The notes below the pieces were generated by a model. That model searched no databases, was not told the origin of the DNA, and worked only from the letters and a program-made list of their open reading frames with translations. This document shows positions 12,226 through 55,325 of a DNA stretch of 64,000 nucleotides, piece after piece (the stretch's first letter is position 1; each line of letters starts with the position of its first letter). A program made the translations under genes and the position numbers. Source of the stretch: a virus. Where the stretch lies: the IMG/VR virus record IMGVR_UViG_3300028024_000105, positions 32,811-96,810 of that record; one strand, written 5' to 3'.

Positions 12226-13137
12226 TCACGCCGGAGTCCTCATTCGCCGAGCAAGGCTGACAAACGCGTACGCTGACTGGAGAGGTACGACTCCGTTTCC
12301 GGCGCATCGAATCCGGTCCAGCCAATCGGCCATCCCATCATCCACTCCCAGAACAACGGGTTCTGTCCCAACTGGGAATAGAGAGAGGTCGGAATCGGGT
12401 CGAGGGGGGAATAGGGGTCCGTAGTCTCCCACTCCTCTATCGGAGGGCACGGACAGTCCGCCACATGATCCCCCCGATGGAGCGTGCACAGGAAATCCTC
12501 GCACATCTCGCAGCGCGTCCAAGGCGCGAAGCGCTTGCGGAACGCCCACGCGGCCCTGTCGAGCTGATCGAATTGCGGAACCCCCTCGCGCATGATCGTC
12601 GCCGGGGAGCCCTTCCAGTCGCGTGCGGCCGGAGTCGGCCAGAATGAACAGCCTTTCTCTTCGGTGCGGCGCGCCGACTTCGCGCGCGCTGAAGATTCCC
12701 GCTTCAACTCGGTAACCCAGCTCTCGAAGGTCTCGCCAGACGACGTCGAGCCCGAGGTTGACGTGTCCTGGGACGTTCTCGAAGAAGCACCGGGGGGGGC
12801 GAATCTCCGCGATGATGCGCTTGATGAAGGGCCAGAGATGTCGCTCGTCGTCGGTTCCTTTTCGGTCGCCGATGAGGCTGAACGGCTGGCAGGGGTAGCC
12901 GCCAGAGAGGAGATCCACTCGGTCGCGGTACGGGCGGCCGTCGAAGGTTGAGACATCGTCCCAAACAGGAGCATGATCCAAGACCTGGTCTGCCATCCGG
13001 GCCACGAGAGTGGCTGCAGCGTAGGCTTCCCGCTCAACGTAACCCACGCACCGGTATCGCTCTCCAAGAGCGACTTTGAGTCCGAGTTCGAGGCCACCAA
13101 CCCCGGCACATAGAGCCAGCCCATTCAACATCTCCAC
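12226..13137 (-). CDS. DNA cytosine-C5 methyltransferase (alpha-type chain)
   Basis: LCAGVGG (I), GGYPCQPFS (IV), FFENVPG (VI), GAPHRRERLFI (VIII), RIRCAGNGVVP (X); no motif IX in this frame. Confidence 0.92.
   Translation of the reverse strand: MEMLNGLALCAGVGGLELGLKVALGERYRCVGYVEREAYAAATLVARMADQVLDHAPVWDDVSTFDGRPYRDRVDLLSGGYPCQPFSLIGDRKGTDDERHLWPFIKRIIAEIRPPRCFFENVPGHVNLGLDVVWRDLRELGYRVEAGIFSAREVGAPHRRERLFILADSGRTRLEGLPGDDHARGGSAIRSARQGRVGVPQALRALDALRDVRGFPVHAPSGGSCGGLSVPSDRGVGDYGPLFPPRPDSDLSLFPVGTEPVVLGVDDGMADWLDRIRCAGNGVVPLQSAYAFVSLARRMRTPA
12240..13124 (-). CDS. alternative-frame ORF nested in the C5-MTase gene; probable beta chain carrying TRD/motif IX
   Basis: WPTPAARDWKGS...DQL...QNPLFWEWMMGWPIGWT; the true start is uncertain. 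Confidence 0.65.
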   Translation of the reverse strand: MGWLYVPGLVASNSDSKSLLESDTGAWVTLSGKPTLQPLSWPGWQTRSWIMLLFGTMSQPSTAARTATEWISSLAATPASRSASSATEKEPTTSDISGPSSSASSRRFAPPGASSRTSQDTSTSGSTSSGETFESWVTELKRESSARAKSARRTEEKGCSFWPTPAARDWKGSPATIMREGVPQFDQLDRAAWAFRKRFAPWTRCEMCEDFLCTLHRGDHVADCPCPPIEEWETTDPYSPLDPIPTSLYSQLGQNPLFWEWMMGWPIGWTGFDAPETESYLSSQRTRLSALLGE

Positions 13138-13149
13138 GGCAGCGCCGCT

Positions 13150-13668
13150 CTAGGTCTCGAGGTCGAAGGCGTTGCCGGAGAAGAAGCCCTGGATCTTGCC
13201 GATCAGCGGGCCTTCGTAGGTTCGCAGGTCGACGCCGGACTCCATGAACATCACACGGACTCGCTTCGCCTGCTCGGCCCACTTCGTGTCGGCGCCGACG
13301 TAGCGCTCGTCCCAGCGCTTGTCGACGACCACTTCGTAGATTCCGGCTTGGATGATGGCGCGAGCGCAGTCGGCGCACGGCGTGCCGATGGTGTACATCG
13401 TGCGTCCGCGCGTCTTGATGCCGTTCCGCGCGGCCTGATAGATCGCGTTCCGCTCGGCGTGCTCGTACCAGAGGTACTTCTCCGGCCGCTCGTTCCGCTC
13501 GGGGACGTCGTCGTTGACGTGGACCGGCATGCCGTTGTAGCCGGTCGAGATGATCTCGTGCTCGTAACCGATCAGCACTGCGCCGATGTGCGTGCTCGGG
13601 TCCTTGCTCTTCTGAGCAACGAAGTACGCCAGCGACATCAGGTAGGAGTCCCAGTCGATCTTGTTCAT
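13150..13668 (-). CDS. dCMP deaminase
   Basis: WDSYLM..A...A.KSKDPSTHIGAV, TGYNG, HAERNAI, PCADCARAIIQAGI; start fixed by CGTCCTAC-N5-ATG. Confidence 0.93.
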   Translation of the reverse strand: MNKIDWDSYLMSLAYFVAQKSKDPSTHIGAVLIGYEHEIISTGYNGMPVHVNDDVPERNERPEKYLWYEHAERNAIYQAARNGIKTRGRTMYTIGTPCADCARAIIQAGIYEVVVDKRWDERYVGADTKWAEQAKRVRVMFMESGVDLRTYEGPLIGKIQGFFSGNAFDLET

Positions 13669-13717
13669 GTTCCGTAGGACGCCTGGTCGCGGGAATGTCG
13701 AATCGGTCCAAGCCGGT

Positions 13718-13951
13718 GTGAAGAAGTTCATCGACGTCGATCAGCAGGCCATCGCGCGGCGGGACCCGTGCCCGATCAACGTGCGCGTGGGCGCGCTACA
13801 CCTGCGCGCGTCGTTCGTGGACGTCCTGGGCGCAGTGCAGGCCCGGTGCGACTACGAGCGGCCCTGCTCGTTCGGCGCTCGCGTGTGGGTGGAGACCGAA
13901 GGGCCGGTTGTGTTCTGGGATTCGTCAGGAGAGCCGACGCTTCTTTCCTGA
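13718..13951 (+). CDS. small conserved phage protein
   Basis: GTCCAAG-N5-GTG start; ...PCSFGARVWVETEGPV. Confidence 0.65.
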   Translation: MKKFIDVDQQAIARRDPCPINVRVGALHLRASFVDVLGAVQARCDYERPCSFGARVWVETEGPVVFWDSSGEPTLLS

Positions 13952-14245: not shown

Positions 14246-14440
14246 ATGGGCGTCCCATCAACCGATGCCAAACCACCGTGCAGCGAATGCGGGAAGCCCT
14301 CCATTTCGATGTGTCCGTACTGCAAGCTCTACGTCCATCAGGGTTTCGGCCTACACAACGGCAACTGCAGCGGAAAGCACGAGGCCAAGTGCTCCGGGGC
14401 TCGATGGTCCCGCGATTCCGACCAGTCCAAGCAGGTGTGA
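14246..14440 (+). CDS. small Zn-finger protein
   Basis: CSECG..CPYC...H...C..HE.KC; SD GGAG. Confidence 0.6.
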   Translation: MGVPSTDAKPPCSECGKPSISMCPYCKLYVHQGFGLHNGNCSGKHEAKCSGARWSRDSDQSKQV

Positions 14441-15363
14441 TCCATCTCCAGCGTCCGGACGACTTTCTGAAGGACTACGACGAGTCCAAGCACCCGCGCG
14501 ACGAGCGCGGACGTTGGGCATCGGGCGGCAGCGGAGGGGCATCGAGTCCGGACATCTCGCCTGGCTCGCGCACCCTCCCTTCCGTCATGCGGGAGGCGAG
14601 CGGACACCCCAACAAGGTGGACATCGAGCGCCTGGGCGACGAGACCACGAGCGTCGGCACGGTCTACAAGGCCACCTTCAAGGACGGCAGCAAGGCCGTC
14701 TACAAACCCGAGAAGGGGAACGGCTACACGACCACGGGCTTGGACGAGCAGGACAACGAAGTTCAGGTCAAGCTCCGGCGCGACATGGACACCAGCGTGC
14801 CCCAGTACAAGAAGGAGCTGGCCACGATGGAGATTGACCGGGAACTCGGATTCAACCGAGTGCCGCACGTTGAGGTCGTGGATTACGGCCACGGGCTCGG
14901 GCATGCGCAGGCGTTCATCGAGGGCGAGGTCGCGGCCAATGTCGACTACAACACGGTGTCCAACGACGTGTTGACGGGCGCGAGCATGCAGCAGGTCGCA
15001 GCCCTAGACATGATCACCGGGAACACGGACCGGCACTTCGGAAACTTCATGCTGGGCCGGGACGACGATCAGTGGTACGCCATCGACAACGGTCTGACGT
15101 TCCCCGACAAGAACGGCCAGTTCAACAGCGTGCCGGTCCGGACGTTGGGCAAGGGCGGTGTCTCGATCCACGAGAGCGTGAAGGCGTCGCTCGCGAAGTT
15201 CACGCCGGAGAAGCTCGACGTCATCATGTCGCGCAACGGTATCGGCAAAGCCGCGCGCGAGCAGGCGAAGGCTCGCCTGAACATATTGAAGACCAAGAGT
15301 ACCTGGACGGGCGTGGCGCATGAGATGATCGCCTACAACCCCTCAAATGGAATTGAGTTCTGA
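14437..15363 (+). CDS. PI3/4-kinase-like (HipA-related fold) kinase with N-terminal HPR peptide
   Basis: AVYKP, KKELA, LGFNRVP, AQAFIEG, LDMITGNTDRHFGNFM, AIDNGLTFP; GTCCAAG-N5-GTG start. Confidence 0.85.
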   Translation: MIHLQRPDDFLKDYDESKHPRDERGRWASGGSGGASSPDISPGSRTLPSVMREASGHPNKVDIERLGDETTSVGTVYKATFKDGSKAVYKPEKGNGYTTTGLDEQDNEVQVKLRRDMDTSVPQYKKELATMEIDRELGFNRVPHVEVVDYGHGLGHAQAFIEGEVAANVDYNTVSNDVLTGASMQQVAALDMITGNTDRHFGNFMLGRDDDQWYAIDNGLTFPDKNGQFNSVPVRTLGKGGVSIHESVKASLAKFTPEKLDVIMSRNGIGKAAREQAKARLNILKTKSTWTGVAHEMIAYNPSNGIEF

Positions 15364-15370
15364 GGGCACA

Positions 15371-15625
15371 ATGCTTCGAGGCGTTCGAGTCAAGGTCCTG
15401 GAGTCACGGGGGCAGCGCACCCTCTCCGAGTACATGCTCGCGGGAGACCGCGCAGTCCTGACGTCCGGCAAGCCCATCCCGACCCTTTCGATCTCCGCTG
15501 CCGATGCCGCCCTAGCCCCCGGCCTGGTCGCCCGCGTCTACACGCCCGACGACGGCAAGTGGTTCCTCCGTGCGCTGCTCGTCACCTTCAAATCCGGCTC
15601 TCGGATGCTGGCCGAGCGCTTCTAG
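15371..15625 (+). CDS. hypothetical protein downstream of the kinase
   Basis: SD GAGGG; 84 aa. Confidence 0.6.
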   Translation: MLRGVRVKVLESRGQRTLSEYMLAGDRAVLTSGKPIPTLSISAADAALAPGLVARVYTPDDGKWFLRALLVTFKSGSRMLAERF

Positions 15626-15645
15626 CCCGACCGGTCCAAGGGTAC

Positions 15646-16461
15646 GTGATCCATTTCACGTATCCGGACGGCTACTTCGAGAAGCGGCGCGACCTGACCA
15701 TCGGAAAGGTCGGTTACTGGGACGAACAGCAGCATCCGCGCGCCGAGGACGGCAAGTTCACGGACGGATCTGGCGGCGCCACGTCGAGCGACGGTCCGGG
15801 TATCCCGAGTTCGGCCGCAGGTGCGGCGCTCGTGAGTCGGGCCGGACAGATGCCCAACTACGAGAGCGTCGCCGACTTTGCGGCGGCTCGAGAGTACATG
15901 GGCAAGCTGGGCACGAACCTGCTGGTGCTGAACGGTGCGAATCCCTCAGACGTTCGTGTCGCGATGCAGTCGACACGTGACTTCATTGAGAAGACCGGCC
16001 TGTCGCCCGAGCGTCTGTACGTGACAACCGACCAATTTATGGTCGACCGCTTCGGCGCACCCACGGCAGACTTGGCTCAGGCTCTGTACGATCCGCAGAC
16101 CCGTGCTGTCATGTCGTCGAAGCTGACCGCACTTTCGGCGAAGCCTACTCAGCCCGGCGGATTCACCATCGGCGAGGACGGATTCAACGAGGCGCAGACG
16201 GCTCTGTGGCACGAGTTCGGTCACTCCGTGCACTTCACGGCCCACGTGGGTTCGCCTGGTCGAGTCCCGCCCAATTTCCGAGGGGCGGTAGAATCGCATT
16301 TGGTTGGAACGTTCAAGGCTCAGGGCATGTCAGACTACGGAGTGACCATGCGAGCCGAGTTCGTGGCCGAGTACGTGTCCGGCCGCATGATGGGCCGCAA
16401 GTTCGGACCGGCGGTCCACGAGGCGTATATCCGATACGGTGGCCCGAAGTTGGGAGACTAA
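15646..16461 (+). CDS. zincin-like metallopeptidase with N-terminal HPR peptide
   Basis: WHEFGHSVH (HExxH), then SDYGVTMRAEFVAE; GTCCAAG-N5-GTG start. Confidence 0.8.
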   Translation: MIHFTYPDGYFEKRRDLTIGKVGYWDEQQHPRAEDGKFTDGSGGATSSDGPGIPSSAAGAALVSRAGQMPNYESVADFAAAREYMGKLGTNLLVLNGANPSDVRVAMQSTRDFIEKTGLSPERLYVTTDQFMVDRFGAPTADLAQALYDPQTRAVMSSKLTALSAKPTQPGGFTIGEDGFNEAQTALWHEFGHSVHFTAHVGSPGRVPPNFRGAVESHLVGTFKAQGMSDYGVTMRAEFVAEYVSGRMMGRKFGPAVHEAYIRYGGPKLGD

Positions 16462-16462
16462 G

Positions 16463-16582
16463 ATGACGCCGAACAAGCCGTTGACCCCCGAGCAGGTCCA
16501 GCAGGTCTGGGACAAGATCGAGCAGGCCAAGCCCGATCTGCCCGAGAACTCCAAGGACAAGCCGGACCAGCCCAAGCCATAG
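16463..16582 (+). CDS. 39 aa peptide downstream of the peptidase
   Basis: MTPNKPLTPEQVQQVWDKIEQAKPDLPENSKDKPDQPKP; SD GGAG. Confidence 0.5.
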   Translation: MTPNKPLTPEQVQQVWDKIEQAKPDLPENSKDKPDQPKP

Positions 16583-16604: not shown

Positions 16605-16642
16605 CCCCGCCGGGAACTTATCGAGACCCGGCGGGGTTTTTT
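16605..16642 (+). terminator. intrinsic terminator with a 12-nt conserved loop
   Basis: CCCCGCCGGG-aacttatcgaga-CCCGGCGGGG-TTTTTT. Confidence 0.85.
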
Positions 16643-16719
16643 ATTTTCTATATTCCGAATCATTCAAGATCCCTTCGACCGCGCGTCCTACGGGACATGA
16701 CGGTAGAAAGGAAAGAGGA

Positions 16720-17571
16720 ATGACCATCGAAGTTCGAACCAAGGCACAATTCGAGGCCGCGCTCAAGATTCCCAACTCCATCATCGACATCCTGGAGGGC
16801 ATCTACGAGCTGGTGACGTACGGAAGCGAGGCTCCGTTCATCCGGCTGTTCGGCAAGGCCGAACTGACCGTCGAGGCGCGGGGATCGTCCCAGCCGCGCG
16901 TCGAGGCGTGGGGATCGTCCCAGCCGCGCGTCGAGGCGTGGGGATCGTCCCAGCCGCGCGTCGTGGCGTGGGAATCGTCCCAGCCGCGCGTCGAGGCGTG
17001 GGGATCGTCCCAGCCGCGCGTCGAGGCGTGGGAATCGTCCCAGCCGCGCGTCGTGGCGTGGGAATCGTCCCAGCCGCGCGTCGAGGCGTCCGGTTTCGTG
17101 CAGCTTTCGCTTCTCGGCAAGATCGTCGCGAAAGCTGCAGCGAAGGTCGCCGTGCTGATCGAGGGTGACGGCCCGAAGGTCACGGGCGGGAAGCAGATCC
17201 GCCGCCAGCTCTTCAAGAACGGGAAGGGATGGTGCGAGTATTACGGAGTCCCGGTCAAGGCAGGGAAGGCCATCGTGTTCAAGGCCCTCGACAAGGACCT
17301 TCGGAGCAGTCACGGTCTCGTCTATCCGGTCGGCGCGACCGTCAAGAGCGACGGCTGGAACAAGAACGAGTGCGATCAGGGACTCCACTTCATCCCTACG
17401 CCCAAGATGGGATACGAGTTCGCGCCGGAGGCCGAGCGGTTCGTCGCGTGTGAAGTCGCCGTGAAGGACATGCTCGTCTTCTCCACCGGCTCGTACCCGA
17501 ACAAGGCGAAGGCTCCGGAGTGCAAGGTCCTCTACGAGTGCAACGACGACGGCGAGGAGATCAAGAAGTAG
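16720..17571 (+). CDS. decapeptide-repeat protein with a C-terminal conserved phage domain
   Basis: 7 copies of V[EV]A[WR][GE]SSQPR; C-terminal VFKA...YPVG...ECDQGLHF. Confidence 0.8.
   Translation: MTIEVRTKAQFEAALKIPNSIIDILEGIYELVTYGSEAPFIRLFGKAELTVEARGSSQPRVEAWGSSQPRVEAWGSSQPRVVAWESSQPRVEAWGSSQPRVEAWESSQPRVVAWESSQPRVEASGFVQLSLLGKIVAKAAAKVAVLIEGDGPKVTGGKQIRRQLFKNGKGWCEYYGVPVKAGKAIVFKALDKDLRSSHGLVYPVGATVKSDGWNKNECDQGLHFIPTPKMGYEFAPEAERFVACEVAVKDMLVFSTGSYPNKAKAPECKVLYECNDDGEEIKK
16870..17088 (+). repeat. 30-bp coding tandem repeat, about 7.3 copies
   Basis: Unit gtcgaggcgtggggatcgtcccagccgcgc with minor variants. Confidence 0.95.
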
Positions 17572-18631: not shown

Positions 18632-18715
18632 GTAAGACGCCGAGGGCTCTCGTTCGTTACCGGGAATGCAGATAATCGCATTCCGTGTAACAGTCATGCA
18701 GGTTTGGCGTCTCAC
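18632..18715. promoter_or_regulatory. divergent pair of class I promoters with a central TGCAGATA box
   Basis: - strand GTAAC(18660-18656)-N16-CGTCTTAC; + strand GTAAC(18687)-N16-CGTCTCAC(18708). Confidence 0.7.
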
Positions 18716-18739
18716 TCATGTGAACAGAAAGGAGATCGG

Positions 18740-20188
18740 ATGAACTGGTTCGAGGTCGACAAGAAGGGCCTAGCCAATCTGCTGGGACGCCGGGGCAAGG
18801 CGTTCCTCGTGCACGAGCTGGTCCAGAACGCCTGGGACACGAACGCGACGCGCGTCGACGTGAACCTCGTGTCGCTGCCCGGCCGCAAGCTGGCCCGGCT
18901 GACCGTGGAAGACGACGACCCGGAGGGCTTCAAGGACATCTCGCACGCCTTCACGCTCTTCGCGGAGTCCGCCAAGAAAGGCGACGCCGAGAAGCGTGGG
19001 CGCTTCAACCTTGGCGAGAAGCTCGTCCTCGCGCTCTGCAAAGAGGCGAAGATCACGACGACGACCGGAGGGGTCAAGTTCAGCGACAAGGGGCGCCAAG
19101 TGATCGGCGCCACGACCATGTCCGGTTCCATCTTCGAAGCCCTGATCCCGCTGACCGACGCCGAGTTGGGCGAGATGACCAAGTCGGTCGCGTGTCTGAT
19201 CCCGCCCGCCGGGATCGCCACGTTCTACAACGGCGACGCGCTCCTGGAGCGCATGCCGCTCCACGAGTTCGAGATCACGCTCCCGACGGAGATCGCCAAC
19301 GCCGAGGGCCAGCTCCGGCGGACCGAGCGCAAGACCAAGGTGCAGGTCTTCGATCCGCAGGATGGAGAGCAGGCCAGCATCTACGAGATGGGCATCCCCA
19401 TCGTCGAGACCGAGGACAAGTGGCACTACAACGTGCTGCAGAAGGTCCCGCTCAACATGGATCGGGACAACGTGACGCCGCACTACCTCAAGACGGTGCG
19501 CGCGGCCGTGCTGAACGCCATGCACGAGAAGCTCACGCCCGAGGACGCCAGCACCCCGTGGGTGCGCGAGGGCGCGGCCGACGAGAACGCCACCAAGGAA
19601 GCCACCGAGAAGGTGATGGACCTTCGCTTCGGGAAGAAGCGCGTCATCTTCGACCCCTCCGACCTGGAGGGCAACAAGCTCGCCGTGTCCGAAGGCTACA
19701 CCGTGATTCCGCCCCGGTCCCTGAACAAGGACGAGTGGGACAACGTCCGCAAGCACGACCTAGCAAAGCCCGCCGGGCAGGTCACGCCGTCGCCCAAGCC
19801 CTACTCGCCCGAGGGCGACCCGCTCAAGATCCTGCCCGAGCTGGAGTGGACCGACCCCATGAAGCGGGTGGCCGAGTACGCGCGCTGGCTCGCGCAGGAG
19901 CTGCTGGGGAACAACCGCCTGCACGTGATCATCGCGCGCGAGGCAACGTGGCCTTACGGCGCGACCTACGGCATGGATCAGTTGACCCTCAACCTGGGCC
20001 GACTGGGGCACGACTGGTTCAAGTCGGTCGGCCAGCACACGGATCGCTTGCTGATCCATGAGTTCGGGCACCACTACGCGGCGGACCACCTGTCGAAGGA
20101 ATACTACGATGCCCTGTGCAAGCTCGGCGCGAAGATGACGGCCTTGGCCCTGCAGTACCCGGAGGTCTTCAAGGGTTTCCGGATCTGA
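18740..20188 (+). CDS. GHKL (HSP90/MutL-like) ATPase fused to a C-terminal zincin motif
   Basis: VHELVQNAWD, VEDDDPEG, RGRFNLGEK, GSIF; C-terminal LLIHEFGHH...DHL. Confidence 0.8.
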   Translation: MNWFEVDKKGLANLLGRRGKAFLVHELVQNAWDTNATRVDVNLVSLPGRKLARLTVEDDDPEGFKDISHAFTLFAESAKKGDAEKRGRFNLGEKLVLALCKEAKITTTTGGVKFSDKGRQVIGATTMSGSIFEALIPLTDAELGEMTKSVACLIPPAGIATFYNGDALLERMPLHEFEITLPTEIANAEGQLRRTERKTKVQVFDPQDGEQASIYEMGIPIVETEDKWHYNVLQKVPLNMDRDNVTPHYLKTVRAAVLNAMHEKLTPEDASTPWVREGAADENATKEATEKVMDLRFGKKRVIFDPSDLEGNKLAVSEGYTVIPPRSLNKDEWDNVRKHDLAKPAGQVTPSPKPYSPEGDPLKILPELEWTDPMKRVAEYARWLAQELLGNNRLHVIIAREATWPYGATYGMDQLTLNLGRLGHDWFKSVGQHTDRLLIHEFGHHYAADHLSKEYYDALCKLGAKMTALALQYPEVFKGFRI

Positions 20189-34143: not shown

Positions 34144-34489
34144 GACGCACCGTCTTCATCCAGCGCAGCATCGACGGCAAGATCCTCTACTTCCGGCCCG
34201 CTCCTGACAAGCGCTGGGACTTGATGGTCGACGAGCCCGGCGGCTCGCGGTACACGTTCCAAGAGCTGCAGCCTGGTGAGGGCCGCTTCTTCCACATCAC
34301 ACCGGCCCGCCCGCCGAAGCGCTGACGCGTCCCCTGTCCAAGGGGGTGCATGGATCATCGAATTCGGGCCGCTCTTCGGCTGATCGGCATCATCCTGGCC
34401 ACGTCTCTCCTAGCCGCCCTTGCAGCCACCGCTCTGATCGCATTCTTCTACGAGTGCGCACGCGCGAAGGGCGCTCTGCAGGTGCCCTG

Positions 34490-36243: not shown

Positions 36244-39162
36244 ATGCGGTACGTGCAGTTCCTGAAGGACCAGTTCCAGAACTTCGTCAACGGGGTGCCG
36301 CGTGAGCAGGTCGAAGAGACCGTCATCGCCCTTCGAACCCCCGTCGCGAAAGCGAAGAAATCCCAGCCGCAGGCTTCCGACGATCCGATCTTCGACGATC
36401 TGCGCACGCCCATGGTGGCAGAGCGCTACACCGAGGCGGACCTTCGGGACTTCCTGAACCTCTACTCCTCGCACACCTGGACGTTCCGCTGTGCCAACAC
36501 CATCGCCACGGCAGCGGCGACGGTCGATTTCGTCTTCAAGAAGGGCAAGGACGAGATCGAGGAAGAGGACCGGAGCGGCTTCCTGAAGCAGCCCAACTTC
36601 TTCCAGACCTGGTACGATCTGTTCGAGACCACCTTCCTGCATCTCGAGCTGGCGGGCAACTCGTTCTGGGAGATCCAGCGGCAGGACAAGGAGATCGTCA
36701 ACATCTTCCCGCTGCGCCCGGACCGTATCACCATCGTGCCGGATGCCAAGAAGCGCGTCCTGCAGTACGAGTACAACGTCAACGGCGAGATCATCCGCTA
36801 CGAGCCCGAAGAGATCCTGCACCTGAAGTACGCTGACGCGAAGGCCGAGTTCTGGGGCATCGCGCCCGCGTCGGCCGCGCGCAATACGATCACGCTGGAT
36901 TTCTACGCCATCGCCTGGAACAAGGACTTCTTCAACCACGGCGCCGAGCCCGGCTTCGTTCTCGAGACCGAGAACACGCTGACGGACATGGCGTTCAACC
37001 GGCTCCAGAAGCTCTGGGGCAAACGCCATCGCGGCAAGCCGCACGAGTTCGCGCTGCTCGAAGAGGGCCTGAAGTACAAGGCCGTCACGTCGAATCACGC
37101 GGACATGCAGTATCTGGAGGGCCGAGACAAGAACGCCGAGGAGATCGGTGGCGCCTACAACGTGCCCCCGTTCTTCCTGGGTCGGGACGGTGGCGGCCCG
37201 CCCAACGAGCAGAAGAAGCGACTCTACCAGACGAACGTCATCCCGAAGCTGACGAAGCTCGGCAAGTTCCTGAACGCCTTCCTGTTCTCGTCTCAGGGTG
37301 TGCGCATCGACTTCCTCACGAAGTCGCTGCCCATGATCATCGAAGACGAGGAGATCAAGGCGCGCATCGCCCAGTCGAACGTCAACCACGGCATCTGGAC
37401 CCAGAACGAGGCGCGCCACATCGAGTGGGGCATGAAGCCCGTGGCCTGGGGCGACACGTGGTGGCAGTCGGTTGGTCTGTTCGACACTCAGAAGCCCGAG
37501 ACCCGTCCGGTGCAGGGTGGCATCGCCGGGGATTTGCCCGGCAATGCAGGTTCCGGCGCTGGCAAGTCGTCCGGATTCAATCATCCTTCGCAGATTCCGG
37601 CTCCTACTTCGAAGGGCTGCACCTTCGAGTCCGATGGAGTGGACTTCGAGAAGGCCGACGAGATCGGCATGGTCCCCATCCTCAAGATGGAGGTCCGTGA
37701 GCCCGACTGGGCCGACAAGCAGGAAGTCGAGGACTGGCAGCAGTTCATGTTCTGGAAGCAGCTCGTCGGACCGGACGAGCTGGAGCTGCGGCGTCAGTTC
37801 CGTGGCTTCTTCAAGGGACAGGGCGAACGCATCCTGCCGCGCATCGCGCATCTGTGGCCGATGCACAAGGCCGAGGAGAGCGGCGACGCCCGCAAGATCG
37901 CCATCGTGGAGATCCTGAAGCTGCTCTTCGACGAACAGCTCGAGGAGAACGTCCTGCGCTCGTTCATGGTTCCCATCGCCGAGAACTCGGTCCGCAAGTA
38001 CGGCCAGAATCTGCTCACCACCAAGAACATCCCGATCCCCTTCCGCATGAGCGACCCGAACGTGCGGAAGTTCATGGAGAAGTACACCGCGTCGCAGGTC
38101 CGCCACATCAGCGAGACCACCCGGCAGATCCTGAAGGACCAGCTCCTGAAGGCAGCCGACGCGGGCGAGCCCATCAAGGCCGTCCTCGCGCGCGTGCGCG
38201 ATGCGTTCGACGGCAATGTCTCGGTGGCCCGCGCCCAGCGCATCGCGCGGACGGAGCTGGTCACCATGTCCAACAACGCCCGCCTGCTCGCGGCCCAGCA
38301 GTCCGGCGTCCTGACCCAGAAGCGGTGGATCTCCGAGAAGCTCCCCACGACCCGGCAGGAGAAGACCGGCGCCAACCACATCAATATGCACGGCATCCAG
38401 ATGGCCATCAACCAGCCGTTCGAGGTCCCCAACCGCAAGGGCGGCGTCGACCTGATGGACGTCCCTGGCGCCAACTCCGGATCGGCCGAGAACGTCTGCA
38501 ACTGCGTCTGCGTCGCCAGCTTCTCCGGCAATCGCGACGCCTTCGCCGACCTGATCGCGCCCCCCGACGAGGTCCCGCCGGACGCCAAAGTGATCGGCAA
38601 GTTGGCCGATCAGATTGCTGCCCTGGAGAAGTGCAACGCCGAGCTGGCCGAGCAGCTTCAGACTCTTCTCGCCGACGCCGAGACGGAGCCGGAACCCGAT
38701 CCCGAACCGCCAGCGCCCCCGGCTCCCCCCGCGCCGAACGTCACGAACGTGACCGTGAACGTGGCGCCGTCGCCCGCGCCCAACATCACCAACCAGATCG
38801 ACGTCAAGCCCTCCGATGTGAAGGCGCCGGACGTGAACGTGGAAGTCGACGTGAATCCGACCCCGATCAACGTGGAGGTCGAGGCACCCGACGTGCACAT
38901 CGACAACCACAATCAGATCGACGTCGAGCCCGCTCCCGTGCAGGTCGACAAGGCCGCCCCGCAGCCGGTGATCGTCAACGTGCCCGCGCCCATCGTCACC
39001 GTTGAGGTCCACCCCGAGATCAAGGCTCCGGACGTGCACGTGGAGGTCAATCCCGAGATCAAGATCCCGGCAACGACCGAGAAGACCACGATCATCCGCG
39101 ACCCGAAGACCCGCGAGATCAAGGGTAGCATCAAGGAAATCACTCCGGAGAACCCGGCGTGA
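36244..39162 (+). CDS. HK97-family portal fused to a MuF-like head morphogenesis domain and a Pro/Val-rich tail
   Basis: Portal: LKQPN, LELAGNSF, PLRPD, EILHLK, GIAP, FFNHGAEPG, LEEGLKY, YNVPP. MuF: RAQRIARTE, KRWIS, NCVC. Confidence 0.9.
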   Translation: MRYVQFLKDQFQNFVNGVPREQVEETVIALRTPVAKAKKSQPQASDDPIFDDLRTPMVAERYTEADLRDFLNLYSSHTWTFRCANTIATAAATVDFVFKKGKDEIEEEDRSGFLKQPNFFQTWYDLFETTFLHLELAGNSFWEIQRQDKEIVNIFPLRPDRITIVPDAKKRVLQYEYNVNGEIIRYEPEEILHLKYADAKAEFWGIAPASAARNTITLDFYAIAWNKDFFNHGAEPGFVLETENTLTDMAFNRLQKLWGKRHRGKPHEFALLEEGLKYKAVTSNHADMQYLEGRDKNAEEIGGAYNVPPFFLGRDGGGPPNEQKKRLYQTNVIPKLTKLGKFLNAFLFSSQGVRIDFLTKSLPMIIEDEEIKARIAQSNVNHGIWTQNEARHIEWGMKPVAWGDTWWQSVGLFDTQKPETRPVQGGIAGDLPGNAGSGAGKSSGFNHPSQIPAPTSKGCTFESDGVDFEKADEIGMVPILKMEVREPDWADKQEVEDWQQFMFWKQLVGPDELELRRQFRGFFKGQGERILPRIAHLWPMHKAEESGDARKIAIVEILKLLFDEQLEENVLRSFMVPIAENSVRKYGQNLLTTKNIPIPFRMSDPNVRKFMEKYTASQVRHISETTRQILKDQLLKAADAGEPIKAVLARVRDAFDGNVSVARAQRIARTELVTMSNNARLLAAQQSGVLTQKRWISEKLPTTRQEKTGANHINMHGIQMAINQPFEVPNRKGGVDLMDVPGANSGSAENVCNCVCVASFSGNRDAFADLIAPPDEVPPDAKVIGKLADQIAALEKCNAELAEQLQTLLADAETEPEPDPEPPAPPAPPAPNVTNVTVNVAPSPAPNITNQIDVKPSDVKAPDVNVEVDVNPTPINVEVEAPDVHIDNHNQIDVEPAPVQVDKAAPQPVIVNVPAPIVTVEVHPEIKAPDVHVEVNPEIKIPATTEKTTIIRDPKTREIKGSIKEITPENPA

Positions 39163-45309: not shown

Positions 45310-45909
45310 ATGACGACCCCCAAGAAGCCGATGTCGCACGCAGAGCAGTATTGCGTCGACCACATCATGAAGGACAAAGCCGGGAAGGCTTACCCCTTCG
45401 ACCAGTGCCTGATCGACCGCAAGGCCGACGGCTACTCCGACGAGAGCGCGCAGCGCATCTGCGGCGCCATCAAGGCGGGCACGGTCCACAAGAGCGCAGG
45501 CGGCACATTCACCACGGAGAAGCAGGCCGACGGCAGCCTCAGATGGGCCGCCGACTTCGAGTTCGCCAAGAAGGTCGACGAGGAACACCTGGTCTACGGG
45601 ATCGTCTACGAACCCGACGTCATCGACGCTCAGGATGACTCGGCAGGCGCCGCCGACATCGAGAAGGCCGCCCACAATTTCATGATCAACTCCCAGCGAG
45701 TGAAGATCATGCACAAGGAGAACGCCGGGCCGCGCGTCTCCATCGTCGAGTCGTACATCGCGCACGACACCTTCCGTCTGGGCGACCAGATGATTCGAAA
45801 AGGCTCCTGGGTTCTCGTGGTCAAGATCCACGACGAGGCCCTGTGGCAGCAGGTCAAGAAGGGCGACCTGACCGGATTCAGCATGGGCGGAAGAGCGCGC
45901 GCTGCGTAG
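45310..45909 (+). CDS. XkdF-like prohead serine protease
   Basis: LVYGIVYEPD..DAQDD...IEKAAHNFM...MH...IVESYI...GSW...LWQQVKKGDLTGFSMGG. Confidence 0.88.
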   Translation: MTTPKKPMSHAEQYCVDHIMKDKAGKAYPFDQCLIDRKADGYSDESAQRICGAIKAGTVHKSAGGTFTTEKQADGSLRWAADFEFAKKVDEEHLVYGIVYEPDVIDAQDDSAGAADIEKAAHNFMINSQRVKIMHKENAGPRVSIVESYIAHDTFRLGDQMIRKGSWVLVVKIHDEALWQQVKKGDLTGFSMGGRARAA

Positions 45910-45956: not shown

Positions 45957-46382
45957 ATGCGGCTCACCGACATCGAAGTGGAAGAAGTCAGCCTTGTGGA
46001 CAAGGCGGCGAACAAAAAGAAGTTCGCGTTCTATAAGAGCGACACCGCAGAGGAAAAGAAGGCGGCGGAAGAGAAAGCCGCAGCCGAGGCGAAGGCCAAG
46101 AAGGATGCGGAGGACGCGGCAGCCAAGAAGGCCGCCGACGAAGCCGCAGCCGCGAAAGCGAAGGCGGAAGCCGACGCAAAGGCCAAGGCCGAATCGGAAG
46201 CCAAGGCGAAAGCAGAGGCCGACAAGAAGGCGGCGGAAGAGAAAGCCGCAGCCGAGGCGAAGGCCGTTCAGGAAGACGCCGAGAAGAACCGCAAGGCAGC
46301 GGCCGACGAGGCGGAAGCCAAGGAGCTGGCAGAGCTGATCGCCAGTCAGAAGGAAACACTCGACCTGCTCGCGCAGGTCTAA
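45957..46382 (+). CDS. scaffold-like protein with a protease-type N-terminus
   Basis: MRLTDIEVEEVSLVDKAAN...FYKS, then a low-complexity Ala/Glu/Lys coiled coil. Confidence 0.7.
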   Translation: MRLTDIEVEEVSLVDKAANKKKFAFYKSDTAEEKKAAEEKAAAEAKAKKDAEDAAAKKAADEAAAAKAKAEADAKAKAESEAKAKAEADKKAAEEKAAAEAKAVQEDAEKNRKAAADEAEAKELAELIASQKETLDLLAQV

Positions 46383-46485
46383 CGCGCCCCTTTCATCGAC
46401 ACCACATCGAACTAGCCGACCTATCGCCGCACACGTTGTGCTGCACGGCCTTGGAGTCTTCAGCAAGTACAGAACGAGAATTGCC

Positions 46486-47829
46486 ATGGGCAACACGAAG
46501 CTCCGGGCGGACGCGGCGGCCAACAACGAGGCCATCAAGAAAATGATCGCCGACAAGGCGACGCAGGGCATGACCAAAGACCAGTTCGAGAAGGAGCTGG
46601 ACAAGCGCATGGCCGACGAGCGTCAGCGCACGCTCGGCGAGATGCGGAAGGGCCAGTACCACCCCGACCTGGTCCGCAACCCGGACAAGTTCGAGAACCT
46701 CGAGATCCTGATGGAGAAGTCGGATCGGGGCGACGTGGTCGAGTTCCAGAAGTGGAACGACGACATCGTCATCCTGTCCAGCCTCCTGAAGGTGCATCCG
46801 CAGGAGCTGAAGCACTTCAAGAAGTACGCCCCGAAGTTCAAGGGCAACGGCTCGTCCGAGATGGCGAAGGCCATGGCGGCGCAGACCGCGTCGCAGGGCC
46901 TGGAGTGGATTCCGACGGACTTCTCCACCGACCTGTTCGACCAGTACCACCTTCTGACGAAGGTGGCCGACCTGTTCGACGAGGTCAACATGCCGTCGAA
47001 CCCCTACAAGCTGCCGTTCGAAGGCGACGACCCCGACACGGTCCTGGGGCACGAGTACAACGACGGCGACACGTCCGAGATCGCGTCCGATGACGCGGGC
47101 ACGGGCAACAACACGATGACCGCCGTGAAGCTGACGACCCGCGTCAACTTCTCGGAGGAGCTGACGGAGGATTCGATCATCCCCGTCCTGCCCATCATCA
47201 AGAAGAAGATGGTCCGCTCCATGGCCATGGGCGTCGAGAGCGCGCTCCTGAACGGCGACACCACGTCGCCCCATCAGGACGTCGACACCACGTCCGCGAC
47301 CGACGTGCGGAAGGCGTGGAAGGGGCTGCGCAAGCTGTCCCAGACCGCCAACGACACGACCCTGACGGCGGTCCCGGCCATCACGGAGATCCGCGCCATG
47401 CTCGCCAAGATGGGCAAGTACGGCGTGAACCCCTCCGACCTGGTCTGGATCTGCGGCGTGAAGGGCTACCAGAAGCTGAAGGGCATGACCGAGGTCCTGA
47501 CGCAGGACAAGTACGGCCCCAAGGCCACCATCTTCAGCGGCCAGCTCGCGAGCCTCGACGGCATCCCCATCGTGGTCTCGGAGAAGCTCCGCGAAGACCT
47601 GAACGCGTCCGGCGTGCGGGACCTGACGACCCAGACGAAGGGCGTCCTGCTCCTGGCCCACCGGGGCTCGTTCCTGCGCGGCCTGCGCCGCCAGCTCACC
47701 GTCAAGCCCTGGATCGACCCGCGCACCGACGCGCAGTCGCTGATCCAGACGTGGCGCGGCTGCTTCATCGCGATGCGCGACGTCACGGCCGAGCCCATCG
47801 TGGTCAAGGGAGTCAACTGGGCGGTGTAA
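46486..47829 (+). CDS. major capsid protein (HK97 fold)
   Basis: GLEWIPTDFS, FSEELTEDS, ESALLNGD, GLRK, LDGIPIVVS; position after the protease/scaffold; followed by a terminator. Confidence 0.9.
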   Translation: MGNTKLRADAAANNEAIKKMIADKATQGMTKDQFEKELDKRMADERQRTLGEMRKGQYHPDLVRNPDKFENLEILMEKSDRGDVVEFQKWNDDIVILSSLLKVHPQELKHFKKYAPKFKGNGSSEMAKAMAAQTASQGLEWIPTDFSTDLFDQYHLLTKVADLFDEVNMPSNPYKLPFEGDDPDTVLGHEYNDGDTSEIASDDAGTGNNTMTAVKLTTRVNFSEELTEDSIIPVLPIIKKKMVRSMAMGVESALLNGDTTSPHQDVDTTSATDVRKAWKGLRKLSQTANDTTLTAVPAITEIRAMLAKMGKYGVNPSDLVWICGVKGYQKLKGMTEVLTQDKYGPKATIFSGQLASLDGIPIVVSEKLREDLNASGVRDLTTQTKGVLLLAHRGSFLRGLRRQLTVKPWIDPRTDAQSLIQTWRGCFIAMRDVTAEPIVVKGVNWAV

Positions 47830-49247: not shown

Positions 49248-49377
49248 GCTCTCGAGAAATCTACCCATCTGACGTGCATGTTCTCGTTTGGAACGGTCCA
49301 AGAGAGTCCAAGCCCAAATTCTAGCCCCGCCTGGTTTCGAGTTTCACTGTCCAAGGTGTTGTAACGAGAGTGATACC

Positions 49378-52895: not shown

Positions 52896-55325
52896 ATGCA
52901 GACGGGCAGTGGCGAGACGACCCTGACGGCGGTCCTTCGACTGCGCGACGAGATGTCGCCGCAGCTCGAGAAATCCAAGTCCGCCCTGGCCGGGATGCCC
53001 GTCGGCTTCGACATCCTCAAGAAGGCTGCCACCAAGGCGATGGCCATCATCACCGGCAGCCTGATCCTCATGACCAAGTCGGTCATGAGCACCGCCGACG
53101 AACTCGACAAGATGAACCGCCAGACCGGCGTGTCCGTCGAGACGCTCCAGAAGCTGGCGTTCGTCGCCGCCGAGTCGGGCGCAAGCCTGCAGGACATCGG
53201 ATCGGGCATGAAGTTCCTGGGTCGCAGTCTCGCTGCAGCGAAGAACGGCGGGCAGGAAGCCATCGAAGCATTCCGCCTTCTCGGCGTCGGCATCGAAGAA
53301 CTGAAGGCGCCGGGCATGACCACCGAGAAGCTGTTCATGCGCATCGCCGACTCGATGCAGTTCCTGAGCGACGAGCAGCGGCAGGAAGTCTTCAAGGTCA
53401 TGGGCAGGGGCGCGGCTGATTTGATCCCGCTCCTGTCTCAGGGCTCCGCAGCCATCACGGCCCTGGGCGACGCCGCCAAGGAGACCGGCGCCATCATGTC
53501 CGGCGAGGCCGTGAAGGCGCTCGACTCCTTCGGCGACCAGCTCACTGGCATGGGGATGGCCCTGAAGGGCATGTGGGGCGAGCTGCTCGCATCGCAGACC
53601 GTCTCCCTGCCGAAGATCATCGAGGGCTTCGGCGTCTTCATGGTCGCCATCAGCGACGTGAAGGGCAAGTTCGTGCTGGCGTTCAAGACCGTCCAGAACG
53701 CGCTGACCTTCGCGGCGGTCGTCATCAAAGCCACCTTCAACGCCATCGTCGACACCATCCAGATTTCGATGGCCAAGGCGGTCGACGCAATTCGTACGCC
53801 GCTCATGCTCCTCGCGCGCGGGCTCAACAAGGCCGGTCTCATGGCCGACGAGACGCTCGCCAAGATGCAGGTGGCGTTCGACGGCTTCGGGGCTGTCGCG
53901 CAGAAGAGCCTGAAAGATCCGTTCGCCAACCTGGGCGTCACGATCAAGCAGGAATACGCCGTCGCCATGCAGGCGCAGGGCGAGTTCGTCGACGAGATGA
54001 AGGCCGACTACAAGGCCGCCGTCGACTCCGTGGACATCTTCACCGGCCGCCTGAAACAGGCCGCAGCCCTGCAGACCGACATGGGCCGCGACAAGGCCGT
54101 CAAGCAGGCCAAGACCAAGAGCGACCCTCTCGACGAAATCCTCGCCATGGCCAAGGCGTTGAACATCGTCACCACCGAGCAGAAGAAGCTCAACCAGATG
54201 GCGGACGACTTCGCCAAGAAGAGCGGCATCCGGCTGAACGCCGAGCAGATGAAGATGCTCGCGGACGCGGCGGCCAAGGGCGACGCCGCCGTCCAGCAGC
54301 TCTTCGAGGACATCACCAAGGCGACTGAGGCGGACCCGCTCAAGGGCATGCAGCTCGCGCTGTGGGACCTGACCCAGCGCACCTACAGCTTCCGCGACGC
54401 CTGGGGCAAAATCTTCGAGGATCTGCGCTCGGGCTTCAGCGAGACCTTCGCCAACGCCATCGACGGAACCGAGAAGTTCGGCGACGGCTTCAAGAAGGTC
54501 ATGAAGGACCTGAAGCGGAACCTGATCAAGATGTTCACCGACTTCGCCACCAACCAGCTCTTCGGAGCGGCGGGCGGTCTGTTCGGGAGCGTCTTCGGCG
54601 CGTCCAGCCCTGCCGCCCCCGGGACGGGTGTGGGGCAGCCGGGCACGACTCCGGGCATGAGCGGTATGGGCGGGCAGATCGGCGGCCTGGCCAGCGGCAT
54701 CGGCAGCGCGCTCGGCATGAGCGGAGGCACGTTCGGGGCCGTCGCCGGACTCGGCGCGGCAGGCGCCGCGCTCACCGTGTCGGGCGTCTCGAACGGGAAC
54801 GTCACGCAGGGGACCATGGGGGGAGCCCTAGCGGGCATGGCCACAGGCGCGGTCATTGGATCGGTGATTCCCGGCATCGGCACAGTTATTGGTGGGGTTG
54901 TTGGTGCCATCGTTGGCGGCCTTGCTGGATTCCTGGGCAGCTCCGCGAAGAAGAAAAAGAAGGCGCGCGAAGCGGCGCGGAAAGCGGCAGCAGCGCTGGC
55001 GGCCTACAACGAGGCTCTGTCCAAAGCCCGGGTCGTCCTGAAGGGCGACATTCGGAACAAGCTGGGCGGCGGTCTCGCGACCGAAGAGGCGGCGGCGGAC
55101 ATCGGACATCTTTTCAGCGAGGATCTCAGTGCGGACGAGATCATGAAGTTCGGAGACCCGGCCGCCATCGCAGCCAAGGAAGCCGCCGTCGATCGGCAGA
55201 ACAACATCAATGCCCCGATCACGGTGAATGCCACCATCACGGGATCGTATGACGCGCAGAGACTTGCCGAAGACCTGTCATACCACCTGCAGAATCAGAT
55301 GGGCGGCGCGGCGGGCGGTCTATAA
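52896..55325 (+). CDS. tape measure protein
   Basis: 809 aa Ala/Gly-rich helical protein; ADELDKMNRQTGVSVETLQKL..AA; Gly-rich TM-like segments. Confidence 0.92.
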   Translation: MQTGSGETTLTAVLRLRDEMSPQLEKSKSALAGMPVGFDILKKAATKAMAIITGSLILMTKSVMSTADELDKMNRQTGVSVETLQKLAFVAAESGASLQDIGSGMKFLGRSLAAAKNGGQEAIEAFRLLGVGIEELKAPGMTTEKLFMRIADSMQFLSDEQRQEVFKVMGRGAADLIPLLSQGSAAITALGDAAKETGAIMSGEAVKALDSFGDQLTGMGMALKGMWGELLASQTVSLPKIIEGFGVFMVAISDVKGKFVLAFKTVQNALTFAAVVIKATFNAIVDTIQISMAKAVDAIRTPLMLLARGLNKAGLMADETLAKMQVAFDGFGAVAQKSLKDPFANLGVTIKQEYAVAMQAQGEFVDEMKADYKAAVDSVDIFTGRLKQAAALQTDMGRDKAVKQAKTKSDPLDEILAMAKALNIVTTEQKKLNQMADDFAKKSGIRLNAEQMKMLADAAAKGDAAVQQLFEDITKATEADPLKGMQLALWDLTQRTYSFRDAWGKIFEDLRSGFSETFANAIDGTEKFGDGFKKVMKDLKRNLIKMFTDFATNQLFGAAGGLFGSVFGASSPAAPGTGVGQPGTTPGMSGMGGQIGGLASGIGSALGMSGGTFGAVAGLGAAGAALTVSGVSNGNVTQGTMGGALAGMATGAVIGSVIPGIGTVIGGVVGAIVGGLAGFLGSSAKKKKKAREAARKAAAALAAYNEALSKARVVLKGDIRNKLGGGLATEEAAADIGHLFSEDLSADEIMKFGDPAAIAAKEAAVDRQNNINAPITVNATITGSYDAQRLAEDLSYHLQNQMGGAAGGL

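Follow-up and report, generated by a model that had tools for sequence, protein, structure and literature searches.

In phage T4 an N-terminal peptide, the capsid targeting sequence (CTS), opens the proteins IPI-III and Alt, is required for their packaging and is cut by the gp21 prohead protease at L/I-x-E. The Dar proteins of phage P1 are likewise an established case of capsid-targeted proteins that are carried in the head. Beyond T4 and P1, little is known, to our knowledge, about how injected phage cargo is selected. Polyvalent proteins of phages and conjugative elements, for which delivery together with the DNA has been proposed, were described by Iyer, Burroughs, Anand, de Souza and Aravind in 2017 (PMC5512222). 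The MuF polymorphic toxins of temperate phages carry variable toxic or enzymatic domains on a head-morphogenesis anchor, with small immunity genes downstream (Jamet et al. 2017, PMC5576092). The subject of this report is a pair of neighbouring genes, encoding a kinase and a protein with an HExxH motif, in a stretch of 64,000 nucleotides of the virus record IMGVR_UViG_3300028024_000105; this whole stretch (record positions 32811-96810) is called the window below. Both proteins start with a shared leader that contains a core of 14 residues, named the HPR tag here. Judged by sequence comparison, the two genes stand on their own as modules of a kind that, with the tag in front, is joined to portal or MuF proteins in other phages: the tag opens modules, and tagged modules of either enzyme class are found in such proteins. 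The two enzymes are probably head cargo.

The shared leader and its core

The kinase gene (14437-15363, + strand) encodes 308 aa and the HExxH (zincin-like) gene (15646-16461, + strand) 271 aa. The original prediction, made on the same DNA, stated that two unrelated enzymes begin alike. This was borne out: the N-termini align with 24 identities in 72 positions (BLASTP E 1e-6), and the enzyme parts are unrelated. The whole 96,810-bp record, like the window within it, contains just these two copies of the motif HPR..G.[FW]. The leader consists of three parts, namely a phage-specific pre-segment (MIH[LF]..PD..), the 14-residue core [WFY]-D-E-x-x-H-P-R-x-x-x-G-[RK]-[FW], and a Gly/Ser linker. In the kinase gene (+ strand) the pre-segment MIHLQRPDDFLKD is encoded at 14437-14475 and is common only to the neighbouring HExxH gene; it is followed by the core YDESKHPRDERGRW at 14476-14517 and by the Gly/Ser-rich linker at 14518-14568, which is predicted to be disordered. 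In the HExxH gene (+ strand) the pre-segment MIHFTYPDGYFEKRRDLTIGKVGY occupies 15646-15717, with an insertion of 11 residues relative to the kinase, and the core WDEQQHPRAEDGKF occupies 15718-15759.

The leader as a whole had been taken for a modular tag. This holds for the core, which prefixes interchangeable enzyme domains, but not for the pre-segment, which is specific to this phage: the 12-24 residues ahead of the core in the window proteins are common only to these two genes. In other proteins the pre-segment consists of 2-70 unconserved residues, and some proteins start at the core, with MA-YDESKHPR or MAN-WDESKHPR. For this reason a conserved signal ahead of the tag was rejected, as was a conserved cut site at F-x-K, which belongs to the phage-specific pre-segment; the clipping after F-x-K that had been suggested is not supported.

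The term HPR-tagged cargo module is used here for an operational class that is defined in this analysis by the tag profile. In a member the core leads, through a Gly/Ser-rich linker, into a folded domain, and both genes fall within the class, the cores of the kinase and the HExxH protein scoring 56 and 54 bits, respectively, to the profile. As both genes are among the sequences from which the profile was built, the independent support comes from the sequence logo of 427 other instances. This logo reads [KA]-[DE]-[WFY]-D-E-[S]-[KQ]-H-P-R-[DG]-[ED]-x-G-[RK]-[FW]-x-x-G-G-G, in which the selection of instances predetermined H-P-R and the acidic pair and left the remaining positions free. Searched alone, the leader gave no family or solved structure in Pfam, NCBIfam and the PDB, and only faint matches in PHROG, to one portal family and two unknowns. 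No description of the HPR tag was found in the literature searched; this result is limited to what was searchable and is no proof that the tag is undescribed.

Tagged proteins of other phages

Viral contigs were searched with back-translated patterns from the two leaders. Of these contigs, 37 encode [YW]DE[SQ][KQ]HPR...G.[FW] followed by a Gly-rich stretch; in them the motif forms the N-terminus of small proteins or stands between the domains of large ones, often several times per protein. A tag profile of 38 columns, built from 36 instances, was compared with 1.84 billion representative proteins and matched 3,615 representative clusters at E≤1e-3, 425 of them at E≤1e-10. A search of this kind had been proposed originally as a way to list the cargo domains, and the list obtained is the repertoire of the polyvalent proteins and MuF toxins. 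Giant polyvalent proteins give the best matches; they have up to 20 copies of the tag, as in a protein of 7,334 residues. Among the best 150 proteins the median spacing of consecutive tags is 274 residues. In 56 of 143 the first tag is found at most 60 residues from the N-terminus; a last tag within 100 residues of the C-terminus was seen only twice. Domain-sized spacing, N-terminal placement and near absence from C-termini indicate that the tag prefixes modules, in the order tag, linker, domain.

ADP-ribosyltransferases (ARTs) are the commonest Pfam carrier domain of the tagged proteins; other carrier domains are zeta toxin, GNAT, AAA_33, Acb1, NUDIX, M90, PBECR1 and LPD1/3. The head-type Pfam domains found in tagged proteins are portal families, MuF, and head proteases of the XkdF type (S78_2) and the Mu type. 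One protein of 2,038 aa (P0123) combines a portal domain (Phage_portal_3) with four tags, an ART and a PI3/PI4-kinase-like domain, so that its predicted enzymes are covalently tied to the portal. In another (P0106) the tag stands immediately ahead of a PI3/PI4-kinase-like domain, the same class as the kinase of the window. Stand-alone tagged genes of other phages adjoin genes for portal, MuF, scaffold, Neck1 or Alt-like ART proteins. Of 21 tag-bearing phage records 14 contain MuF, as do six of the seven near-complete ones, a frequency that stands without a matched baseline, and the tag can directly follow the NCRC motif of MuF. The link to MuF and the head that was originally drawn is thus seen both in fusions to portal, MuF and prohead protease and in the portal, MuF and scaffold neighbours of the carriers. 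A tie of the tag to XkdF-type proteases was considered and rejected, as S78_2 is found in only 4 of the 21 tag-bearing records.

The two genes and their surroundings

The identification of the first protein as a kinase was confirmed. It matches PF00454 with E 7e-7 and 29.8 bits, above the curated cut-off of 27.1, and its catalytic motifs (KP, DRHxxN and IDNG) are intact; AVYKP, GNTDRHFGN and IDNG are invariant in an alignment with its few relatives. The AlphaFold model has a predicted template modelling score (pTM) of 0.72 and its best fold matches are human PI4KII-alpha and PI4KII-beta. Residues 1-43 are predicted to be disordered in this model, ahead of a confidently folded domain. Together with the homologous modules in other tagged proteins, these data mark the protein as a genuine PI3/PI4-kinase-like enzyme. 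Type II PI4-kinases (PF00454) and the SCO1664-like bacterial family TIGR03843 share its fold and catalytic motifs; the window kinase differs from them in being encoded by a phage and carrying the tag, and identity is about 18-20%. Three near-full-length relatives were found (P0003-P0005).

For the second protein the prediction of an HExxH peptidase stands in part. The metal-binding motif HEFGH is present (16210-16224, + strand); the zincin fold is without confirmation, as no match was obtained in Pfam, PHROG or NCBIfam and the structure model is unusable, with a predicted local distance difference test (pLDDT) value of 34. Look-alikes found with ESM belong to small metalloprotease, M90 and ATLF-like (lethal-factor-like) clusters and serve as leads only. 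Near-length relatives were not found, and a search for longer proteins with a zincin domain was also empty. Relatives of the HExxH domain do occur in tagged polyvalent proteins. They share the tail S.Y..T..EF[VI]AE..G..G, the conserved EF[VI]AE lying about 45 residues downstream of HExxH, and matches were obtained among the modules of L031, P0041 and P0061. Such domains are present in 41 of about 190 locally compared sequences, about a quarter, as counted with an iterated profile in which some drift is possible. They are often the last, C-terminal module of tagged proteins and occur in up to three copies per protein; P0086 and P0090 are further carriers. The members of this large HExxH...EF[VI]AE family that were tested gave no Pfam match. 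Each of the two window genes has a single recognisable domain.

Each gene is trailed by a small open reading frame (ORF), as originally noted: an 84-aa ORF follows the kinase gene (15371-15625, + strand) and a 39-aa ORF the HExxH gene (16463-16582, + strand). Both look coding by their G+C content at third codon positions (GC3), which is 0.84 and 0.95, respectively. Neither belongs to a known family, and neither has relatives at any of the other tag loci compared; the look-alikes of the 84-aa ORF are weak, beta-sandwich only, and none is usable.

Both genes start at GTCCAAG-N5-GTG, in agreement with the original prediction (14425-14437 and 15634-15646). The heptamer GTCCAAG occupies 14425-14431 and 15634-15640 on the + strand, each time 5 nt ahead of the GTG (14437 and 15646), the second copy within an intergenic gap of 20 nt. 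The likeness of the two genes at the DNA level spans the 14 nt CCGACCrGTCCAAG, which end with the heptamer, is broken for five bases and resumes at GTGATCCAT. Longer in-frame upstream starts were rejected for either enzyme on third-position G+C: in the kinase frame GC3 is 0.54 upstream of the start as against 0.87 within the gene, and an upstream extension of the HExxH gene would overlap an ORF with a GC3 of 0.84.

Across the window GTCCAAG occurs 30 times, 3.5-fold more often than the 8.5 copies expected, with 27 copies on the + strand. Gaps that contain it precede terminase, protease, scaffold, connector, tail and distal-tail genes, and about 10 nt further upstream there is often a GTTTCG; examples are the copies at 34336, 43916, 45283, 45928, 49296-49355, 51168, 56151 and 63680. 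Seven sites have a start codon exactly 5 nt further on, namely 8833, 13706, 14425, 15634, 24138, 26093 (- strand) and 29039 (- strand). These features suggest a candidate phage-specific promoter-like element with leaderless or short-leader mRNAs. A further copy at 14484-14490, within the kinase gene, is formed by the codons GA-G TCC AAG of the E-S-K of the tag and is probably a coincidence.

The gene block on the + strand comprises, in order, a doubtful 64-aa ORF, the kinase gene, the 84-aa ORF, the HExxH gene and the 39-aa ORF, and is closed by a strong intrinsic terminator (16605-16644, + strand). The possible Cys-rich ORF at the head of the block (14248-14440, + strand; CxxC-x8-CxxC) is zinc-ribbon-like (CSECG...CPYC), and its stop overlaps the GTG of the kinase as GTGA. 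Its coding status is doubtful because GC3 is just 0.55-0.69; family searches gave no match. Directly upstream of the block, on the opposite strand, are genes for a C5 cytosine methyltransferase (12226-13137, - strand) and a dCMP deaminase (13150-13731, - strand). Beyond the terminator, in a DUF7666 / phrog_15773 protein (16720-17571), a unit of 10 residues (SSQPRVEAWG) is repeated in tandem about seven times. A second HExxH protein of the accessory region (18704-20188) joins the N-terminus of a GHKL-type ATPase (PF13589) to a C-terminal HEFGHH motif and carries no tag.

The source is a linear record of an uncultured phage, 96,810 bp long and estimated to be about 73% complete. No nucleotide match was found among cultured phages with megablast and tblastn (region and kinase), and the identity of the portal protein to that of any cultured phage is at most 26%; by these comparisons the phage is distant from all cultured phages. 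Weak tblastn leads to the tag itself among cultured phages are Faecalibacterium phage FP_Brigit and Xanthomonas phage PhiXhv-5 (tag in the annotated portal) and the Pseudomonas phages Orisa/Orimi. A portal-MuF fusion of 972 aa (36244-39162, + strand) is a candidate anchor for head cargo and is itself without a tag; its C-terminus forms a repetitive Pro/Val/Asn-rich tail of about 180 residues that includes VNVEVDVNPTPINVEVEAPDVH. The XkdF-type (S78_2) head maturation protease is encoded at 45310-45909 (+ strand), followed by the other head genes of the record, a scaffold-like protein (45957-46382) and the major capsid protein (46438-47829); the tape measure protein is encoded at 52896-55325.

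Possible roles of the tag, and known systems

We infer that the tag is a feature for procapsid entry, a mark of module separation, or both. To the first we give about an even chance, with the two genes as unfused cargo modules and the tag as a predicted disordered linear motif that marks a module for the procapsid. Each module would consist of the phage-specific pre-segment, the 14-residue tag, the flexible Gly/Ser linker and one enzyme domain, and the tag, as a disordered short linear motif, would mark its module for procapsid incorporation near the portal/MuF complex. Both enzymes would be made late, be carried in the head, be released with the DNA into the next host and act on host targets there. 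The two enzymes have GTCCAAG in common with the morphogenesis genes and would on this account be expressed while heads are assembled. The 84-aa and 39-aa ORFs, originally proposed as inhibitors or chaperones, may, as a speculation, restrain the enzymes in the producing cell. Loading is ranked first because the tag is kept on separately encoded proteins, in which there is no junction to cut, and because some proteins start at the core. A wider claim is doubtful and falls well short of an even chance: that the tag is a near-universal, transferable label which a conserved part of the portal/MuF vertex or of the procapsid interior recognises in tailed phages whose hosts span many bacterial phyla, and that it alone could bring any protein into the head to be injected, in trans in the present case. 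The near-invariance of the tag across phages with different portal families suggests either a conserved partner or an intrinsic property.

Several findings weigh against loading. The two genes are surrounded by genes of nucleotide metabolism and accessory genes, with the head module about 20 kb further downstream. GTCCAAG with a start codon after 5 nt also stands ahead of accessory genes (8833, 24138 and 26093, the last on the - strand), so that the element need not mean 'structural'. The closest full-length relatives of the kinase, the three mentioned above, have different N-termini and no tag, and for the HExxH protein the model with its pLDDT of 34 leaves the zincin fold not confirmed. The tag is repeated inside proteins that a portal or MuF fusion already anchors, and these would seem to need no targeting signal. 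Finally, a phage-specific receptor is made less likely by the near-invariance of the tag among phages whose portals and proteases belong to different families.

The most serious alternative, though on balance an unlikely one, is that the tag is mainly a processing junction, at which a protease, either a co-occurring HExxH zincin in cis or in trans or the prohead protease, cuts and frees the modules. In the window the tag would then be a pro-peptide junction, and the neighbouring zincin could trim the kinase and itself. It stays serious because of the internal repeats of the tag in proteins that are already anchored, because related HExxH domains are among the commonest co-modules, often the last, and because the zincin gene of the window follows the kinase gene within one terminator-bounded block. 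The tags also stand at domain boundaries with domain-sized spacing. The sequence W-D-E|S, with E at P1 after an aromatic residue, resembles the sites cut by the Glu-specific head proteases of the T4 and phiKZ types. That polyvalent proteins may be processed by metallopeptidase domains of their own was proposed by Iyer et al. 2017 (PMC5512222). However, about three quarters of the tagged proteins examined are without a recognisable zincin, and the families of the prohead protease vary among tag-bearing phages, with S78_2 confined to the four records given above. A near-invariant core of 14 residues also far exceeds a typical cleavage site, and proteins that start 2-4 residues ahead of the core have almost nothing to remove.

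It is quite improbable that the tag is an inter-domain delimiter, a shuffling junction or linker with no part in targeting, and that the enzymes are intracellular host-takeover proteins which never enter the virion. Conserved pre-toxin motifs of polymorphic toxins, which serve as junctions for module exchange, offer an analogy. The location of the genes outside the head module, near the dCMP deaminase, C5 methyltransferase and GHKL ATPase genes, would agree with such a role, as would the extreme modularity of the carriers and the variable neighbours of the tag; the DNA that the two copies share just upstream of the start codon is consistent with duplication or exchange of a cassette. Conservation at the protein level across very differently composed phages points instead to a function of the protein, and a neutral linker would not be expected to be so strongly associated with fusions to portal, MuF and protease or with neighbours from the head module. 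Very improbable is binding of the tag to a universal partner (packaged DNA, or a conserved host factor encountered after ejection, such as a chaperone, a protease or the envelope machinery) with a role in ejection or activation and not in loading: a conserved partner is suggested by a core that hardly varies although portal and protease families do, and basic and aromatic residues (H-P-R, G-R/K-F/W) lie beside a flexible linker, but the motif occurs in no solved structure in the PDB search and the head-gene neighbourhood is not better explained than by loading.

Head loading by means of a cargo-targeting peptide is a known concept. The locus was originally put forward as a candidate for an undescribed system, but the T4 CTS, the P1 Dar proteins, the MuF toxins and the polyvalent proteins are already established, and it is not a new kind of system. 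As in T4, a short N-terminal peptide is common to unrelated proteins, which in T4 are loaded into the prohead and injected and in the window are probable head cargo. The HPR tag has no sequence likeness to the CTS, also occurs internally and in repeats, and is accompanied in this phage by a protease of the XkdF type (S78_2); no L/I-x-E site is present in either leader of the window.

The polyvalent proteins (PMC5512222) share with the tagged proteins their kinases, metallopeptidases, ARTs, GNATs, zeta toxin, PBECR and LPD domains as well as the linkage to MuF and portal, and the tag punctuates such proteins. Both window genes are of phage origin and encode domains of the conflict repertoire (kinase, HExxH). 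Polyvalent proteins have at least two effector or catalytic domains per polypeptide, whereas the window proteins have one each, homologous to polyvalent modules. The kinases described there are of a truncated Ser/Thr/Tyr type, in contrast to the PI3/PI4-kinase-like enzyme found here, and the HPR tag is not mentioned in the text of Iyer et al. 2017 (PMC5512222). With the MuF toxins (PMC5576092) the locus shares variable enzyme domains and small downstream ORFs, and MuF co-occurs with the tag in the 14 of 21 records mentioned above. MuF toxins carry an N-terminal MuF (PF04233) in the same protein, whereas the only MuF of this record is in the portal fusion, 20 kb away. They also have a cognate immunity gene directly downstream, where the window has the coding-looking 84-aa and 39-aa ORFs without a known family. 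The HPR tag is not mentioned in Jamet et al. 2017 (PMC5576092).

Thousands of multi-enzyme proteins linked to the head have modules opened by this conserved peptide, which makes it a concrete candidate for a selection or processing signal. If the tag does work in trans, cargo enzymes could be found by sequence and chosen proteins could be loaded into capsids; two separately encoded tagged enzymes are the cleanest arrangement for asking whether it does. What this window adds is the arrangement of two genes with a single enzyme each, an extended shared leader and a shared upstream element.

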